In this document: in pieces, positions 2,827-57,273 of the stretch
How positions within the stretch are numbered: the first letter of the stretch is position 1
Layout: the number at the start of each line of letters is the position of its first letter
Assembly: GCA_023267595.1 (NCBI GenBank)
Contig: JAHFNB010000002.1
Span: forward strand, 87,947 to 151,946
Reading direction: 5' to 3'
DNA: 64,000 nucleotides
Source: a bacterium
GTDB lineage: Bacteria > Patescibacteriota > Minisyncoccia > Phycocordibacterales > UBA5272
Made by a program: the position numbers and the translations under genes
Notes under the pieces: model-generated
Told to the model about the DNA's origin: nothing
What the model saw: only the letters and a program-made list of their open reading frames with translations
Database searches by the model: none

Positions 2827-3067
2827 TTTTTCACTCTAACATATTTATAAAGACTTGGTCACAAAACTACCTCGCTTTGTTGGGAAAGGAATCTTGACTA
2901 CAAGTTTTGTGTCGTCGCCACTCACAAACTCGCAGTCCGCCCCTCGTGGTTTTGCTTTCTAGCAAAACATCACTGCGGTCTTCAAGTCCTTACGCAAGCA
3001 AAGCAGTTTGCTTGCTTCCTAGGCACAACTAAAAAATGGACACTTGTGTGTCTCATTTTTTATGTTG

Positions 3068-3149
3068 TGCCCAGGAAAGGACTTGAACCTTCATGCCTTG
3101 CGGCGCTTGCTCCTAAGGCAAGTGCGTCTACCAATTTCGCCACCTGGGC
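3068..3149 (-). tRNA. tRNA-Leu (anticodon TAG), type II
   Basis: Reverse complement: acceptor gcccagg/cctgggc. Anticodon arm cttgc-ctTAGga-gcaag. Long variable arm. T-loop ttcaagt. Confidence 0.8.
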
Positions 3150-3248: not shown

Positions 3249-4643
3249 CTAGTGTTGATGTATGAGATGTTGCATCTTGCCGAGAAAGCGATTTCGGCGA
3301 TGCGTGAATCCTCGTGATGACTTTTCATCTTCGGAAGCATTGCTCTTTTTCTGTACTTCTTTTTTTGCTTTGATTCCGAGACTCATACCAACGTCTCGCA
3401 GGTATTGGTGCACGACTTTTGCGCCTTCTGCCATTTTTGTCGGCATCCCTGTGATGTCGAGCACTTCATGTTTCAACTTCGCAAACGTGAAGTGGACATT
3501 GATCGAGAGTTCCCCACTTTCTTGGAGGTGGCCGAGCATGTGCTCATTGTCCGCACCTTTGAAGTAGAGTTCTCCATCTTTGTCCAAGGAAAAGAATGCA
3601 TTTGACCCTTTCTCATCTTTCGATTTGTAAAGGTCAGGTTTTGCAGATAAAAAAAGTTCCAACATCTTTTCCGATGCTTCTTCCGCATTGTACGGAATCG
3701 GATTTTTCTTCTGCTCTACCGGAATCATTGCTACAACTTCTTCTTTTTTTTGTGGAGTAGGTGCGGTGATGATCCCTTCTTCTTCCATGATAATACGAAG
3801 GAACGACCACATCTGCTTTTGTATTGCGAAAGCCGCAGGGTTGATGAGTTTGCTTTCGAATTTTTCCGAGCGAAGTTGCACCACTGATACATACAAATTG
3901 GGGTGCAACTCTGCGTCAACCAACCCACTTTCTTCTGTTGCCTTGTGGACATAGATAACCGGCAAGCCAGTTACCAGTTTTGCGATTCTGAAAACGACAT
4001 CCTTGATTCCGACCAGGCCGACGCGATCTTCATCACCCCAGAGAATGCGAGCAACGGCGGACGATTCTTTTTCGATCTGGCTGTAGGAAGAAATTTCCGT
4101 GCGTGTCACTTTACTTTCTGTGACATACTGGATACTTTCCGTCAGACCAAACCCTTCGATCATGATGCGGAGGAACTTGTAGAGTTGCTCCACCATTGCA
4201 TACACCACTTCGTCTTTGATTTGCGCAACGAAGACCGGTTGCTTCAGTTTCGCGAAGGGAATACGCGTTTGCACTTCCACTCCTGCAAGTGCAAGCGGAT
4301 GATACTTCGGTATTTTGGATACTTCGATGAAGATGATTTCGTGACCAACAGGGGCGCCCTTGTACATCGGGTACAGTTGTTTGGTGAACTCGACTCCATC
4401 TTCAGTGCGGTAGAGTTCCTTGTCGAGAACTCCGTTGAAGAGTTCCCGCAGTTCATGACCCATACGAGCATGCTTGTACGGAATTTTATTTCCGCCAGCA
4501 TCCAGACTACGCGGTGCGTAACTGGCAGGCACTAACCCTTTTTCTTTGGGTGGCTTGCGCGGTTTTTCCACATGCGCAGATTTTTTACTTTTATTCTTTG
4601 GCAGACCTTTACTGCCCTTACGTTCTTTGAACGTCTTGCCCAT
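3249..4643 (-). CDS. hypothetical protein with basic N-terminus (464 aa)
   Basis: Long clean ORF with a Lys/Pro-rich N-terminal tail. No family recognised. It appears noticeably more GC-rich than its neighbours. Confidence 0.5.
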   Translation of the reverse strand: MGKTFKERKGSKGLPKNKSKKSAHVEKPRKPPKEKGLVPASYAPRSLDAGGNKIPYKHARMGHELRELFNGVLDKELYRTEDGVEFTKQLYPMYKGAPVGHEIIFIEVSKIPKYHPLALAGVEVQTRIPFAKLKQPVFVAQIKDEVVYAMVEQLYKFLRIMIEGFGLTESIQYVTESKVTRTEISSYSQIEKESSAVARILWGDEDRVGLVGIKDVVFRIAKLVTGLPVIYVHKATEESGLVDAELHPNLYVSVVQLRSEKFESKLINPAAFAIQKQMWSFLRIIMEEEGIITAPTPQKKEEVVAMIPVEQKKNPIPYNAEEASEKMLELFLSAKPDLYKSKDEKGSNAFFSLDKDGELYFKGADNEHMLGHLQESGELSINVHFTFAKLKHEVLDITGMPTKMAEGAKVVHQYLRDVGMSLGIKAKKEVQKKSNASEDEKSSRGFTHRRNRFLGKMQHLIHQH

Positions 4644-6764: not shown

Positions 6765-7262
6765 CTACTTCTTATGTGCAGTTTTTGCGTCTGTTAAAAC
6801 ACTTTGCTCTTCTTCTGTTAAATCGTGAGTACTCGTATACTGCGTAACTGGTTTTGCAAACATACTAAATCTGTCGCGATGATGAAGTGATGAAAGAATA
6901 ACACCGTTACCTTGTTCATTAACAAGTGCAATTGCAAATGATTGATTACTACTGTTAGTATCAAAGGCTTTAAAGCGCACAGTTGAAACATTGCGAATAC
7001 ATTGTGATAGTCGCGTTTCTAAATCCATTGCATGTTGTGCGAGTAATTCATCATGCTTTTTTAAATTATCTACTTTGTCTAAATAGTCACGTATAGTACC
7101 TTCAAGATTTTTCCCATTTTCACCACGCATAAAAATAGATAATTTGTAATATTGATGAATTGTAGTGACAAGGAGTACAACCGTGCAAGCAAATAGGATA
7201 ACAACAGTATACGGAGATGTTGAGTAGATAAGGAGAGTATTCATGTAGAAGAATTGTAACAT
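6765..7262 (-). CDS. membrane-anchored hypothetical protein (DUF4446-like?)
   Basis: N-terminal TM segment followed by a soluble domain. Family assignment is from memory and weak. Confidence 0.4.
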   Translation of the reverse strand: MLQFFYMNTLLIYSTSPYTVVILFACTVVLLVTTIHQYYKLSIFMRGENGKNLEGTIRDYLDKVDNLKKHDELLAQHAMDLETRLSQCIRNVSTVRFKAFDTNSSNQSFAIALVNEQGNGVILSSLHHRDRFSMFAKPVTQYTSTHDLTEEEQSVLTDAKTAHKK

Positions 7263-7410
7263 ATGACACTTATTTTTATGTATATTTTAATTTTGAAAAA
7301 GATTTTTAATTTTGGTATGATACAAAAAGTGATAGGGGTTCATTCCTTTCATGATTGTGTTTGACTAATGATGTCAGACACTCCGCCAAAAACGTCACAG
7401 GAGAAAGCAC

Positions 7411-7476
7411 ATGAAAAAAATCATGCACAACGCGTCCCCGCCGCCGCTCCGACTGACCGTTTCAGGAAGGGGGTGA
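7411..7476 (+). CDS. micro-ORF (21 aa, MKKIMHNASPPPLRLTVSGRG) with SD, inside a GC-rich patch
   Basis: aggagaaagcac precedes the ATG. Contains a PPP tripeptide. Below the ORF-track size threshold. Confidence 0.2.
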   Translation: MKKIMHNASPPPLRLTVSGRG

Positions 7477-7523
7477 TCATATCTAGAGTCTTTGGATAAT
7501 GGAATTTTTTTCCAGAGATTCGG

Positions 7524-7555
7524 GCGGCTGCATGGCAGCCGCTTTCCCATTTTTA
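7524..7555 (+). terminator. intrinsic terminator (gcggctgc-atg-gcagccgc + T-run)
   Basis: GC-rich 8-bp stem followed by tttcccattttt. Confidence 0.6.
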
Positions 7556-7588
7556 TACTTTAAATAATAGCAACATATTTTTGGGTAC

Positions 7589-7616
7589 TTGACAAATATT
7601 TTGTAGATGCTATACT
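7589..7616 (+). promoter_or_regulatory. near-consensus sigma70-type promoter (TTGACA, 16-nt spacer, TATACT)
   Basis: ttgacaaatattttgtagatgctatact. It lies about 55 nt upstream of an SD (aaggagaag) and the small ORF at 7673. Confidence 0.5.
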
Positions 7617-7672
7617 AGTATTTGTAGTACCTTCAACGATTTATTCTTGATTTCAACCACAAGGAGAAGTCC

Positions 7673-7792
7673 ATGAAAAGCCCGCCCGCAGCAATCCCCG
7701 GCAAACCCTATGCCTTCCAGAGCCTGAACCTGATCAAGAAATCCGCCACGGCCAGCGCCGGCCAGGCGAAGGTGCACGCAGTCGCGACCTGA
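7673..7792 (+). CDS. small GC-rich ORF (39 aa, MKSPPAAIPGKPYAFQSLNLIKKSATASAGQAKVHAVAT)
   Basis: Strong SD, ATG, and GC content very unlike the host. Flanked by a promoter upstream and a terminator downstream. Confidence 0.3.
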   Translation: MKSPPAAIPGKPYAFQSLNLIKKSATASAGQAKVHAVAT

Positions 7793-7873
7793 TCGCCCCG
7801 CGCGCCACCGGAGGAAGTAGCACCCGTTGCTTCCTCAATCAAAACATCGTCCACTTCATGTGGCGAGCAGTAC

Positions 7874-7908
7874 CCCGCCGACCAAAGGTCGGCGGGTTTT
7901 CATTTTTA
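7874..7908 (+). terminator. intrinsic terminator (cccgccgacc-aaa-ggtcggcggg + ttttcattttt)
   Basis: 10-bp GC stem plus a T-run. Confidence 0.6.
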
Positions 7909-7937
7909 TAAAATAGATTTTGTTGTAGTATAGTGAT

Positions 7938-9143
7938 ATGTCAATGTTTGGAAATATTTTTAATAAAAAAAGAGTGTATCTTGATAATGGAGGAGCAACG
8001 CCACTATCTGCGCGTGCAAAGCATGTATTTTTATCTGCGTTAGATATGTATGGGAATCCATCATCTATTTTTAAAGAAGGAATAGAGGCTGAGAAACGTT
8101 TAGACGAAGCACGAAAGAAAATTGGAATAGTTATCAATGCCCGTGCTTATGAAATATATTTTACAGGTTCTGGAACAGAGAGTTGTAACCTTGCAATCCT
8201 GGGGACATATTATGCATGGAAAAAGGATAATGAATACGCAACCCATTTACCGCATATTATTATTTCTTCTATTGAACATCCGGCAATCATGGAAGTAGCA
8301 AATTATTTGGCACTTAATTCTCTTGCAAATATTACCTATCTTCCTGTGTATGAAAATGGCATTGTAAAAGTACAAGATGTAAAAAATGCAATTACCAAAG
8401 AAACTATTTTAATAAGTGTGATGTATGCGAATAATGAAATAGGAACAATACAACCAATAAAAGAAATTGGGCGCATGCTTGAGGAATATAAAAAAGAAAA
8501 TAAAAGTGTCTATCCATTGTTTCATACTGATGCATGTCAGGCGGGGAATTATTTAAACCTAGATGTATTTCGTCTGAAAGTGGATATGATGACTATTAAT
8601 AGTAGTAAAGTATATGGTCCAAAAGGGATAGGTGTTTTATATAAAAAAGAAGGAGTAACTATTTCTTCTATTTCATTTGGTGGTGGACAAGAACGAGGAT
8701 TACGTAGTGGTACAGAATCAGTGGCACTGGCTATGTCATTTGCGGAAGCATTAACCGAGGCACAAGAACTACGAGAAAAAGAAAATGCACGCCTTACATT
8801 ACTGCGAGATACATTTAAAGAAATAGTAGAAAAAAGATTACCACAGATAGTATTTTATGGTGTATGGGATGAACGATTACCAAATAATATTAATTGCCGT
8901 ATTCCTGGTATATCTAGTGAAGAAATGATTGTACGATTAGATACAAAAGGATTTTCTGTGTCACATAAATCCGCGTGTGCATCACAAATAGAGGATAGTA
9001 GTTATGTGATCCGTGCACTTGGTGCAACAGAAAAAGAAGCAAAAGAAAATATACGTATCACCTTAGGAAGAGAAACAACAGAAGATAATTTAAAGAGATT
9101 AGTTGATGCTATAGAGGAGATTGTGAAGAAATACAGTCACTAG
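7938..9143 (+). CDS. cysteine desulfurase (NifS/IscS-like class V aminotransferase)
   Basis: 401 aa. PLP-lysine region INSSKVYGPKGIGVLY and overall class-V fold signature. Confidence 0.8.
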   Translation: MSMFGNIFNKKRVYLDNGGATPLSARAKHVFLSALDMYGNPSSIFKEGIEAEKRLDEARKKIGIVINARAYEIYFTGSGTESCNLAILGTYYAWKKDNEYATHLPHIIISSIEHPAIMEVANYLALNSLANITYLPVYENGIVKVQDVKNAITKETILISVMYANNEIGTIQPIKEIGRMLEEYKKENKSVYPLFHTDACQAGNYLNLDVFRLKVDMMTINSSKVYGPKGIGVLYKKEGVTISSISFGGGQERGLRSGTESVALAMSFAEALTEAQELREKENARLTLLRDTFKEIVEKRLPQIVFYGVWDERLPNNINCRIPGISSEEMIVRLDTKGFSVSHKSACASQIEDSSYVIRALGATEKEAKENIRITLGRETTEDNLKRLVDAIEEIVKKYSH

Positions 9144-9210
9144 TTACTAGTCACTCGTTTGTAGTTGTATTACACTAGTAACTATCAACTAGTAACTAAC
9201 AACTAACCAT

Positions 9211-9810: not shown

Positions 9811-9996
9811 TTAGTTCTCGTCCTCTTTTTTTATAGGAGCACAGAGGGGATGTAAAATTTTGCCTTCGTGTCGCACGAAGGCTTGTCCACGTTTGAGGTG
9901 GTCTCCACACACACAAAACTCAGGTTCCCCACCTTTTTTTGGTTGGTATCCTGGAGGACATACTGCTCGCACACCATTTTCATTAGAAGAGTACAT
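9811..9996 (-). CDS. small Cys-rich hypothetical protein (61 aa)
   Basis: Cys pattern C-x30-CxC-x19-C resembling a zinc ribbon. Convergent with the SOD-like gene. Confidence 0.3.
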   Translation of the reverse strand: MYSSNENGVRAVCPPGYQPKKGGEPEFCVCGDHLKRGQAFVRHEGKILHPLCAPIKKEDEN

Positions 9997-10251
9997 TGTT
10001 CCCTCGTTATAGTACGATATGGTCCAAAATTAATTTATCATGTATATTATATTTGTCAAGTTGACTTAGGTATTTCATTTTGGCATTGTATATATATCCT
10101 GTATTGATTGCTTATCCACCACGAAAGAAAGGCTAAAATCTGTTACACTGTATATAGTATTTGAATTATTGTGAAAATGGTTTGTATGTATTGAATTTTT
10201 TTATTGTCTTTTCTATTAACTACAAACTAGTATCTATAAACTGTCCATTTT

Positions 10252-30317: not shown

Positions 30318-30572
30318 TTTAGCGTGGGATTAATCTGTGTCAGGCAACAAAAATGGTCCCCCGATACAGCGACAATCTCCGAAGAGACGTCCCTCAACCT
30401 TTCAGTTGAGGACCCACGCTAATGAATGCCGATCAGGAGACCGTTTTTATTAGCGTGGGTTTTGTCAGCCATGACACCATAATTAAAAGTGTTTTAGGCT
30501 ACAAATATTCAATTGTCCATACTATTATCGCAGAAAAAGGCTAAATAAACAATTATTCTGTCAAGGTTAAAT

Positions 30573-36636: not shown

Positions 36637-36690
36637 TATTTGTATTGTATTTACTATAAACTAGTAACTATCAACTAAAAACTATTAATT

Positions 36691-37068
36691 ATGGATATAG
36701 AAGCACGAAAGAAAGAATTATCACCAGAAGAAAATCATGTGCTCTTTAATGGTGGTACAGAAATACCATTTTCTGGTGAATTATTAAACGAAGAACGTAA
36801 TGGAAAGTTTTTATGCAAAGTATGCCATACTCCACTTTTTAACTCTGATGCAAAGTTTGATTCAGGAACTGGGTGGCCATCATTTGATCAGGCACTGCCA
36901 CATGCAGTGGAATATATTGATGATACAAGTATGGGAATGATTCGTCGTGAAGTGAGATGTGCAACATGTCACGCCCATTTGGGACACGTATTTCCAGATG
37001 GTCCAACAACTACAGGGAAGAGATATTGTATGAATTCAGTATGTCTTACATTTGAAGAGAAAAAATAA
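36691..37068 (+). CDS. msrB: peptide methionine (R)-S-oxide reductase MsrB
   Basis: CxxC...CxxC zinc site, GWPSF, and RREVRCATCHAHLGHVFPDGP. Confidence 0.9.
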   Translation: MDIEARKKELSPEENHVLFNGGTEIPFSGELLNEERNGKFLCKVCHTPLFNSDAKFDSGTGWPSFDQALPHAVEYIDDTSMGMIRREVRCATCHAHLGHVFPDGPTTTGKRYCMNSVCLTFEEKK

Positions 37069-49356: not shown

Positions 49357-49746
49357 TTACGGGGTGTGAGCACCACCCTCTAATGCTATCTTGAAACTTG
49401 GCGGTGGTCCGTCAACCTTCATGGCATGGAAAGCATCCTGATACCAGATATTGAAGGAAGGCACCTGAGACGGGTGGACGAGACCATATTTCAACAACGT
49501 ACCTTTATTGTTTTCCACGATGAGGGAGAACATCCCATCTTTGTCGATGATGACACTTTTGACAGAATGTTCCGGATCTTTGAACGTACAATCCACCATG
49601 CCGCCGCAGGTGCAATTTGCACGAAATTGCAAACCAGTCGGCCTCCTCATGCAATACGCAAAGATGGAGTGTATACCTTCTTTGGTGATAACTACTTCTT
49701 TCTCTTTTTTGGTGACTGTTGTGTCACCTTCGATAACGGATTTCAT
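49357..49746 (-). CDS. hypothetical protein (GC-rich relative to neighbours)
   Basis: 129-aa ORF with no recognised motifs. Its composition differs from surrounding genes. Confidence 0.35.
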   Translation of the reverse strand: MKSVIEGDTTVTKKEKEVVITKEGIHSIFAYCMRRPTGLQFRANCTCGGMVDCTFKDPEHSVKSVIIDKDGMFSLIVENNKGTLLKYGLVHPSQVPSFNIWYQDAFHAMKVDGPPPSFKIALEGGAHTP

Positions 49747-56919: not shown

Positions 56920-57273
56920 ATGAAAGATCAAGAATTTGTTGAGTATGTTGTGAAAGCATTGGTAGATAATGCGGATAAGGTGAAAGTAGAAAGACGAGTA
57001 GATGAAATGGGAGTATTAATTACCCTTGATGTTGCAGGAGAAGATATGGGAAAAATAATTGGAAGAGATGGAGCAACTGCAAAAGCACTTCGTACACTTC
57101 TTCGTGTCGTTGGTATGAAAAATAATGCACGGGTTAATTTAAAGATTAATGAACCAGAAGGACGAGTAAATATTGCACGTGAGGAACGTGAAGAAATAGG
57201 TGGGCAGTCATACATGCCAAGATATGATACGTCAGATGTTGACGCAGTGATGAATGATCTAAAGAGTATTTAA
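56920..57273 (+). CDS. KH-domain RNA-binding protein (KhpA/YlqC-like, extended)
   Basis: KH GxxG GKIIGRDGATAKALR. Conserved position downstream of rpsP. Confidence 0.7.
   Translation: MKDQEFVEYVVKALVDNADKVKVERRVDEMGVLITLDVAGEDMGKIIGRDGATAKALRTLLRVVGMKNNARVNLKINEPEGRVNIAREEREEIGGQSYMPRYDTSDVDAVMNDLKSI

Follow-up and report, generated by a model that had tools for sequence, protein, structure and literature searches.

The closest described counterparts of the locus reported here are SgrS/SgrT, RNAIII/delta-haemolysin and SR1/SR1P, in which a unit of 200–600 nucleotides (nt), running from promoter to terminator, carries within a structured RNA an open reading frame (ORF) of 25–45 amino acids (aa) that is led by a Shine–Dalgarno sequence (SD). 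A unit of this kind is situated in a 64,000-nt stretch of the genome of a bacterium of the Patescibacteriota (contig JAHFNB010000002.1, positions 87,947–151,946 of the forward strand). The whole of this stretch is called the window, and positions are counted from its first letter. In the window, a 675-nt spacer (7263–7937) separates a gene for a DUF4446 protein on the minus strand from a gene for a cysteine desulfurase on the plus strand, and contains two units in tandem on the plus strand, unit 1 (about 7293–7554) and unit 2 (7589–7906). In kind, we rate unit 2 as a small-protein or dual-function RNA gene and unit 1 as the gene of a small RNA (sRNA); no member of the locus is present in Rfam or Pfam. 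Besides the general layout, unit 2 shares with the three systems a non-coding segment more conserved than the ORF, which is seen at two related loci, L006 and L095. It differs from them in having no sequence or Rfam relationship to them and no known pairing target, in an excess of G and C at third codon positions (GC3) that is extreme for an AT-rich genome, and in a 3' domain that has been replaced between close relatives.

GC-rich intergenic regions of AT-rich genomes have served for the discovery of non-coding RNAs in the GC-IGR approach (PMC11109978). Like the candidates found in that way, the spacer is a long intergenic region far more GC-rich than the genome. In contrast to them, it matches no curated family, and its GC excess is partly in phase with codons, marking a coding segment.

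A preliminary description of the locus had pointed out a GC-rich patch in AT-rich DNA with two short ORFs, their SDs, a promoter and two terminators, and all of these elements were found in place. Averaged over 80 nt, the GC content peaks at 0.75 within 7645–7903, the highest value in the 64 kb (mean 0.364, standard deviation 0.065). The GC-rich DNA forms two patches, 7372–7505 (GC up to 0.575) and 7645–7903 (up to 0.75), with AT-rich promoter DNA between them. The interval 7380–7910 had been proposed as one mini-cassette of about 0.5 kb; the promoter of unit 1, however, falls outside this interval, and the elements belong to two independent promoter-to-terminator units rather than to a single cassette. 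The signals exceed chance: six terminator-like sites were seen and 0.9 expected from shuffled sequences, and eight promoter-like sites were seen and 3.6 expected. No second copy of the patch and no flanking repeats were found when the window was searched for them.

Unit 2 and the element that follows it consist of these parts:

7589–7616, plus strand: promoter TTGACA-16-TATACT with extended TG (11 of 12 matches), kept at all related loci
7623–7672, plus strand: AT-rich 5' untranslated region (UTR), from an alignment of seven lineages
7673–7792, plus strand: small ORF (sORF) of 39 aa, MKSPPAAIPGKPYAFQSLNLIKKSATASAGQAKVHAVAT, SD-led, GC3 0.82
7793–7873, plus strand: structured 3' UTR, 63% GC, with hairpins at about 7811–7836 and about 7847–7866
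7874–7906, plus strand: intrinsic terminator, 10 bp (7874–7896) of which nine are G–C, then a T-run; flanking sequence conserved
7905–7934, plus strand: promoter-like element of the desulfurase gene, TTTATA-18-TATAGT, 93% identical to L005 over 44 nt

Transcription of unit 2 would start at about 7623. The 5' UTR opens with the conserved TGTAGTACC and closes with a strong SD, AAGGAG (7661–7666), 6 nt before the ATG. With its own promoter, its own terminator and an SD plus start codon, the unit has the outfit of a small-protein gene. The T-run of its terminator overlaps the –35 region of the next promoter, and 40 nt separate the terminator from the start codon of the desulfurase gene. Since the –10 box of that gene sits only 3–9 nt ahead of the start codon, the desulfurase mRNA is probably leaderless or near-leaderless.

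The complete platform was found directly 5' of the desulfurase gene in eight copies, namely, in the window and at the related loci L005, L006, L088, L090, L095, L097, and L103; a further related locus, L099, is partial. The desulfurases of these relatives are 65–79% identical to that of the window and 64–83% identical among themselves. The divergent DUF4446/desulfurase arrangement is kept in the relatives, with spacers of 570 to about 1470 nt. All eight copies have the same order of promoter, 5' start, AT-rich 5' UTR with a strong SD, short ORF, 3' region of 100–450 nt, and terminator, the T-run of which abuts the highly conserved –10 box of the desulfurase gene. Conserved as sequences are the promoter, (C/G)TTGACAA...TG(C/G)TAT(A/G)(C/A)T, and the first ten or so transcribed bases, TGTA(G/A)(T/C)AC. 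Between promoter and terminator almost nothing can be aligned across the lineages, with the exception of L006 and L095. Of the eight copies, only that of L097 has its sORF annotated as a gene, by JGI. In a metagenome scan with the desulfurase, distant relatives (desulfurase identity at most 57%) had spacers of mostly 50–130 nt and no such element, nor was the element found in relatives with a VKOR gene ahead of the desulfurase gene. The best reading is that units 1 and 2 are specific to one clade of Parcubacteria.

Several features of the sORF indicate coding. Its GC3 is 0.74–0.86 in all seven lineages that could be read whole; the 51 long ORFs of the window have a GC3 of 0.25 (standard deviation 0.07), and the highest value of any 39-codon stretch is 0.69. 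A three-base periodicity of GC is detectable in all five long-sORF loci scanned (the window, L006, L088, L090, and L095). The periodicity lies in the frame defined by the SD, is confined to the sORF, and ends at the stop codon though the GC content remains high beyond it. Between L006 and L095 the N-terminus MKK.LATLD is retained through synonymous changes (CTT/CTC, GCC/GCG, CTG/TTG), and every insertion or deletion in the sORF is a multiple of three. The similarity of the sORFs at the nucleotide level is weak and lies above that of shuffled sequences (z = 3.4 for the window and L006, z = 4.2 for L095 and L097). Because of this similarity, and because the aligned stretches take in the context of the stop codon, the sORFs appear to be homologous and to have evolved in place rather than to have been swapped in. 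The 39-aa sORF is therefore likely to be translated and fast-evolving, and the earlier suggestion of a small peptide module gains support, as far as this ORF is concerned, from the comparative coding signatures in related genomes.

The composition of the unit varies with the state of the sORF. In the two lineages in which the sORF is truncated the GC content is lower (0.51 in the 3' UTR of L005, 0.44 in the unit of L103), whereas in the 3' UTR of the long-sORF copies it is mostly 0.57–0.63, with 0.49 in L088. This difference can be read as decay after loss of the gene, so that selection would hold the GC-richness in intact copies; it suggests a link between GC-richness and an intact gene.

At the level of RNA, the plus strand of unit 2 folds better than its dinucleotide shuffles in all lineages (z between –2.3 and –5.3; –4.8 for 7615–7905 of the window), and the SD is partly paired in the minimum-energy fold. 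Directly behind the stop codon, L006 and L095 share a core of about 200 nt that is 88–92% identical; the third codon positions of the flanking desulfurase genes are 65% identical. All five substitutions inside the helices predicted by RNAalifold preserve the pairing. We consider the core a candidate for a new RNA motif. It comprises 3661–3874 of L006 and 2058–2271 of L095 and contains a run of 68 identical nt and a closing helix predicted to have 12 bp. A putative second ORF (ORF2) in the core was tried as a coding sequence and rejected; counted by hand, its ratio of nonsynonymous to synonymous changes (dN/dS) is about 1, and the 68-nt identical stretch is free of synonymous changes. As the dN/dS of ORF2 is about 1, the constraint on the core would act on the RNA and not on a protein.

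Unit 1 comprises the following features:

7293–7321, plus strand: promoter TTGAAA-17-TATGAT with extended TG (promoter scan, 10 of 12 matches)
7399–7476, plus strand: SD AGGAGA (7399–7404) and a 21-aa micro-ORF (7411–7476), GC3 0.71
7465–7486, plus strand: conserved motif GGAAGGGGGTGATCATATCTAG, kept in the window, L005, and L090 despite diverging flanks
7489–7518, plus strand: stem–loop TCTTTGGA...TCCAGAGA, position kept, sequence different in each lineage
7522–7554, plus strand: intrinsic terminator, 10-bp stem (hairpin 7522–7544), then a T-run

Its transcript would begin at about 7328. The 21-aa ORF, MKKIMHNASPPPLRLTVSGRG, includes the tripeptide PPP and ends at a UGA within the conserved motif. 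At the corresponding position L005 has no equivalent SD and ATG, and the ORF is lineage-specific. In relatives the conserved motif reads GAAGGGAGGTGATC(N2-3)TAYCTAGCCTTGTT; taken over the window, L005, and L090 it is GAAGGGAGGTGATC(N2-3)TAYCTAG(CCTTGTT). It is a near-perfect complement of the generic 3' end of bacterial 16S rRNA, from which the 3' end of the organism's own 16S rRNA may differ. The duplex predicted for the motif and the generic 3' end has –32 to –35 kcal/mol; with the same generic end, –20 kcal/mol is predicted for a canonical SD and –13 kcal/mol for the SD of unit 2. Where SD spacing would place a start codon, the motif is followed by none, but by ATC or ACC and then by TAG. 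The motif thus has the character of an orphan SD, that is, extended complementarity to the generic 16S rRNA without a properly spaced start codon. The reading frame through the motif is not kept, with a 1-nt deletion in the window, and the conservation is therefore at the level of nucleotides. The 3' half of unit 1 has the same build in the window, L005, and L090, with the single-stranded motif, the lineage-variable hairpin, and the terminator.

A system to which unit 1 may be compared is the STAB-SD of the cryIIIA mRNA of Bacillus thuringiensis, an orphan SD that, as Agaisse and Lereclus are said to have described in 1996, stabilises the RNA through binding of the 16S rRNA 3' end. Unit 1 resembles it in its SD-like motif, the extended complementarity to the (generic) 16S 3' end, and the lack of a start codon at SD spacing. 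The STAB-SD, however, is located at the 5' end of a long mRNA, whereas the motif of unit 1 belongs to a short sRNA-like unit and lies about 70 nt before its terminator, and stabilisation is putative here. Unit 1 would accordingly be an sRNA whose orphan extended SD could pair with the 3' end of the 16S rRNA, and it would act either as a STAB-SD or as a decoy that binds 30S subunits.

At three related loci the position of unit 1 is filled by unrelated small genes, of 54 aa in L088, 55 aa in L095, and 154 aa in L097. These small genes (L088 1560–1724, L095 1671–1838, L097 286–750) have no Pfam match. From this comparison the DUF4446/desulfurase spacer appears to be a hot spot of gain and loss of small genes.

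Searches for known elements did not account for the locus. The region 7200–8000 has no match at the gathering threshold in Rfam 15, the best hits of a permissive search, up to an expectation value (E) of 10, having E of 1.8–6.8 and belonging to unrelated eukaryotic families, so that a known RNA family does not explain the patch, and for unit 2 of five related loci no Rfam match with E ≤ 1 was obtained. In the unit 1 part of L005 a match to L20_leader has E = 0.29 and 26 bits, compared with a gathering score of 58.7. ARAGORN found seven transfer RNAs (tRNAs) and no transfer-messenger RNA (tmRNA) in the window. The sole Rfam match in the window other than tRNAs is a LOOT RNA (RF03000) at 30371–30500 on the minus strand, with 63.3 bits against a gathering score of 46.4. 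A blastn search with 7330–7910 gave a single 67-nt match to plasmids with E = 4e-3, nothing significant, and none to phages. Neither the two micro-ORFs nor ten long six-frame pieces of the GC-rich bodies matched a Pfam family; since no family was found in any long frame, the bodies do not appear to be recognisable gene fragments. Among viral contigs the body sequences had no match. There, the promoter pattern was matched by a generic phage promoter only, and the motif of unit 1 had one match (L102, 781–803, minus strand) within a GC-rich phage gene (...SKGGDPYLGVMADEV...), which was judged to be due to chance. A diversity-generating retroelement (DGR) or a retron was also considered and dismissed: there is no repeat of the patch in the window that would resemble a variable repeat, and the flanking genes are not reverse transcriptases. 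Neither unit is explained by matches to Rfam, Pfam, tmRNA, phages or plasmids.

We propose that unit 2 is a micro-gene restricted to its lineage and translated from a stable RNA that may have a dual function, and that unit 1 specifies an sRNA; in our judgement this proposal has an even chance of being correct. What the sequences show directly are the signals, the conserved platform, the coding signature, and the extreme composition, from which transcription, translation, RNA stability, 30S binding, and a biological role are deduced. The near-consensus promoter of sigma-70 type would produce an RNA of about 280 nt, and the rare strong SD in the AT-rich 5' UTR would recruit 30S subunits and drive the translation of a peptide of 25–40 aa, 39 aa in the case of the window. 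With its GC-rich codons, 3' hairpins, and strong terminator, the RNA would be a poor substrate for AU-directed endonucleases and 3' exonucleases and could therefore persist and accumulate to high levels. The terminator may at the same time insulate the adjacent leaderless promoter of the desulfurase gene. The effector of unit 2 is most likely the peptide, and in at least some lineages an additional role of the 3' domain at the RNA level, as in a dual-function RNA, is likely. A wider form of the proposal would be a conserved expression platform for a payload whose GC-rich codons are selected against the AT bias, placed beside an sRNA that pairs with the 16S rRNA. The two units would then form a circuit for SD-dependent translation in an SD-poor organism, or the peptide or RNA would be tuned to the GC-rich host of a presumed episymbiont. 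We regard this wider form as quite improbable.

A number of results weigh against the proposal. The peptides are only 23–32% identical in a forced alignment, and the sORF is cut to 8 aa in L005 and to 14 aa in L103; with so short a product in two lineages, the peptide may be dispensable or may not be the key product. An exhaustive phmmer search of 1.84 billion representative proteins gave no match to the 39-aa peptide; a profile built from six peptides and run against 5.8 billion proteins found only the peptide of L097 (a "hypothetical protein" of JGI). An exact look-up of the 39-aa product likewise returned no record. The support for RNA structure comes from two sequences, L006 and L095, and no equivalent of their core is recognisable in the window. 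The 3' bodies of L005 and L099 have no detectable similarity (z = –0.3). As their desulfurase genes are close (85% identical in nucleotides, 71% at third positions) and the bodies nevertheless cannot be aligned, the turnover of the 3' body would outpace neutral point substitution. Finally, the duplex of unit 1 was calculated with a generic 16S 3' end, the 16S rRNA of the host not being within the window.

If both units were purely non-coding structured sRNAs, the high GC content would reflect structure, and the ORFs would be incidental or serve only for loading ribosomes. Such RNAs would fit a GC-rich patch in an AT-rich genome, as is seen for other stable RNAs, and fold z-scores of –2 to –5, and it agrees with them that the 3' core of L006 and L095 is conserved above silent sites, with pair-preserving substitutions and an ORF2 with a dN/dS near 1, and that the peptides are poorly conserved and in two lineages truncated. 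Against such RNAs stands the GC periodicity of the five long-sORF loci, which does not extend beyond the sORF and follows the frame set by the SD; moreover, an SD and an ATG are kept in all lineages, the changes between L006 and L095 preserve the frame, and the bodies have no Rfam match and share neither alignable sequence nor a common fold across lineages. We consider purely non-coding units unlikely, though by no means far-fetched. Rather improbable, in our view, is a spacer that collects GC-rich DNA of foreign or selfish kind, for instance captured fragments or insertions resembling miniature inverted-repeat transposable elements (MITEs), without a function for the host. Composition and codon usage do look foreign, with the atypical composition that marks an islet; unrelated small genes occupy the position of unit 1 in L088, L095, and L097; the 3' bodies turn over faster than silent sites; and related genomes contain GC-rich palindromic repeats. 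Yet the GC-rich segment begins at the start codon of a homologous sORF, behind a conserved native promoter, 5' UTR, and SD. It has no flanking repeats, no donor among plasmids, phages, and viral contigs, and no relic of a protein domain in any frame. The high GC content persists across lineages that are only 65–83% identical, which speaks against a recent transfer that has not yet been ameliorated. As a recent event, the horizontal acquisition considered in the preliminary description is thus contradicted, since in at least eight lineages the unit occupies one and the same position and has a homologous promoter, SD, and sORF.

The possibility of a leader-peptide attenuator had been raised as well. 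Unit 2 would then be a cis-acting leader whose rare-codon sORF, when translated, governs the terminator at 7874–7896 and hence the read-through into the desulfurase gene. The attenuators trpL, hisL, and ermCL have in common with unit 2 a short ORF led by an SD and then an intrinsic terminator, both placed shortly ahead of a structural gene of the same strand, and all these parts are present here, with the terminator close to the start codon at 7938. The unit is always directly 5' of the desulfurase gene in the same orientation, even in L097 with a gene inserted further upstream, and GC-ending codons are rare in the genome. However, minimum-energy folds in six lineages gave an identical terminator hairpin with or without the sORF forced to be single-stranded, so that the terminator would form irrespective of ribosome occupancy. 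No antiterminator is predicted, the sORF of the window has no Cys codons, and no pattern of regulatory codons is shared between lineages. The distance from the sORF stop codon to the terminator ranges from about 80 to about 430 nt, and the downstream gene has its own promoter with the conserved TATAGT as –10 box. We therefore regard a leader as very improbable. Still less can be said for a small toxin, as part of a type I toxin–antitoxin system such as AapA1/IsoA1 or Fst/RNAII or of another module; here, too, a small SD-led ORF is carried by an mRNA that folds strongly and keeps the SD partly sequestered. In contrast to those toxins, the peptides are not membrane-like: the grand average of hydropathy is between –0.29 and 0.30, the highest mean of 15 residues is 0.4–1.8 (0.43 for the peptide of the window), and there is no transmembrane segment. 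Inside unit 2 no promoter-like site was found on either strand in seven lineages, and there is neither an antisense RNA gene nor another overlapping second RNA gene. The toxin suggested earlier is therefore highly improbable. The sudden shift in composition might also result from a chimeric assembly, which the preliminary description had mentioned. The exact look-up of both flanking proteins led to three independent assemblies, SRR14366796 and SRR14366791 (Logan) and ERZ27279937 (ENA), and in all of them the spacer (675 nt, 100%) and both flanking genes are identical; the homologous architecture in related species also speaks against a chimera, the probability of which, judged by sequence comparison, is negligible.

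GC-rich palindromic, MITE-like repeats (GTCATTCCCGCGCAGGCGGGAATC...) were observed in L097 at 100–158 and 1529–1560 and in L050 at 129–190. The copy at L097 1529–1560 lies within the annotated N-terminal coding extension of the protein P0012, where it encodes RGND motifs. The homologues P0011, P0014, P0017, and P0019 have extra low-complexity segments, either N-terminal or internal.

The spacer is bordered by two genes:

6765–7262, minus strand: gene for a DUF4446 protein of 165 aa (Pfam PF14584, E = 3e-37)
7938–9143, plus strand: gene for a cysteine desulfurase of 401 aa (class-V aminotransferase, Aminotran_5; Pfam PF00266, E = 1e-50)

The DUF4446 gene is the first of a string of genes on the minus strand, with the ORFs of IF-2 (infB) and RbfA (rbfA) downstream of it.

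The SD of unit 2 is unusual for its surroundings. Only four of the 51 long ORFs of the window are preceded by an SD-like motif, and a strong –10 box lies 4–12 nt before the start codon of seven. The organism thus seems to initiate translation mostly without an SD, and in part on leaderless mRNAs. An earlier wording that many genes are leaderless was toned down, as only seven of the 51 have a strong –10 box near the start. In a scan of the intergenic regions for SD-led ORFs, the two micro-ORFs of the spacer stood out together with an ORF of 464 aa and one of 75 aa (57046–57273). Strong SD-led initiation is exceptional in the window.

The 464-aa ORF (3249–4643, minus strand) lies beside a tRNA-Leu gene (3067–3149), has no Pfam match, is preceded by the strong SD CAAGGAGAAC, and has a GC3 of 0.50, twice the genome mean. 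With an SD and a high GC content like those of the micro-ORFs, it may have been acquired, or it may form one special class with them. Among the long ORFs, GC3 is highest (0.52) in an ORF of 129 aa (49357–49746, minus strand), which lacks a Pfam match and has the motif AAGGGGAAG upstream.

Hardly anything is known of the small proteins and sRNAs of bacteria of the Candidate Phyla Radiation (CPR), since they escape gene callers and RNA family libraries. The locus offers a concrete and comparatively supported example of a CPR small gene. It also suggests a simple rule for recognising others: in a genome that is AT-rich and poor in SDs, to look for ORFs that combine a leading SD with a high GC3. 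Judged on sequence, two traits are unusual: a GC3 excess that is held in such a genome, and an orphan 16S-complementary motif beside infB and rbfA. If the composition is selected, it would point to RNA stability or to a specialised SD-dependent translation in organisms whose translation mostly starts without one. The orphan motif, by its position, provides a lead on ribosome regulation in these organisms.

Further observations were made downstream of the desulfurase gene. Between the genes for superoxide dismutase and ClpB lies a Cys-rich ORF of 61 aa (CPPG...CVCG...HPLC; 9811–9996, minus strand), which is followed by a terminator. In its promoter, at about 10026–10061, the –35 context is ACTTGACAAATAT, as in unit 2. 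A tandem direct repeat of 14 nt, similar to TAGTAACTATCAAC, occurs at 9162–9206, 10214–10244, and 36648–36692, just 5' of the superoxide dismutase gene (9211), the ClpB gene (10252), and a gene at 36691, respectively. From its positions this repeat looks like the shared operator of a stress regulon.

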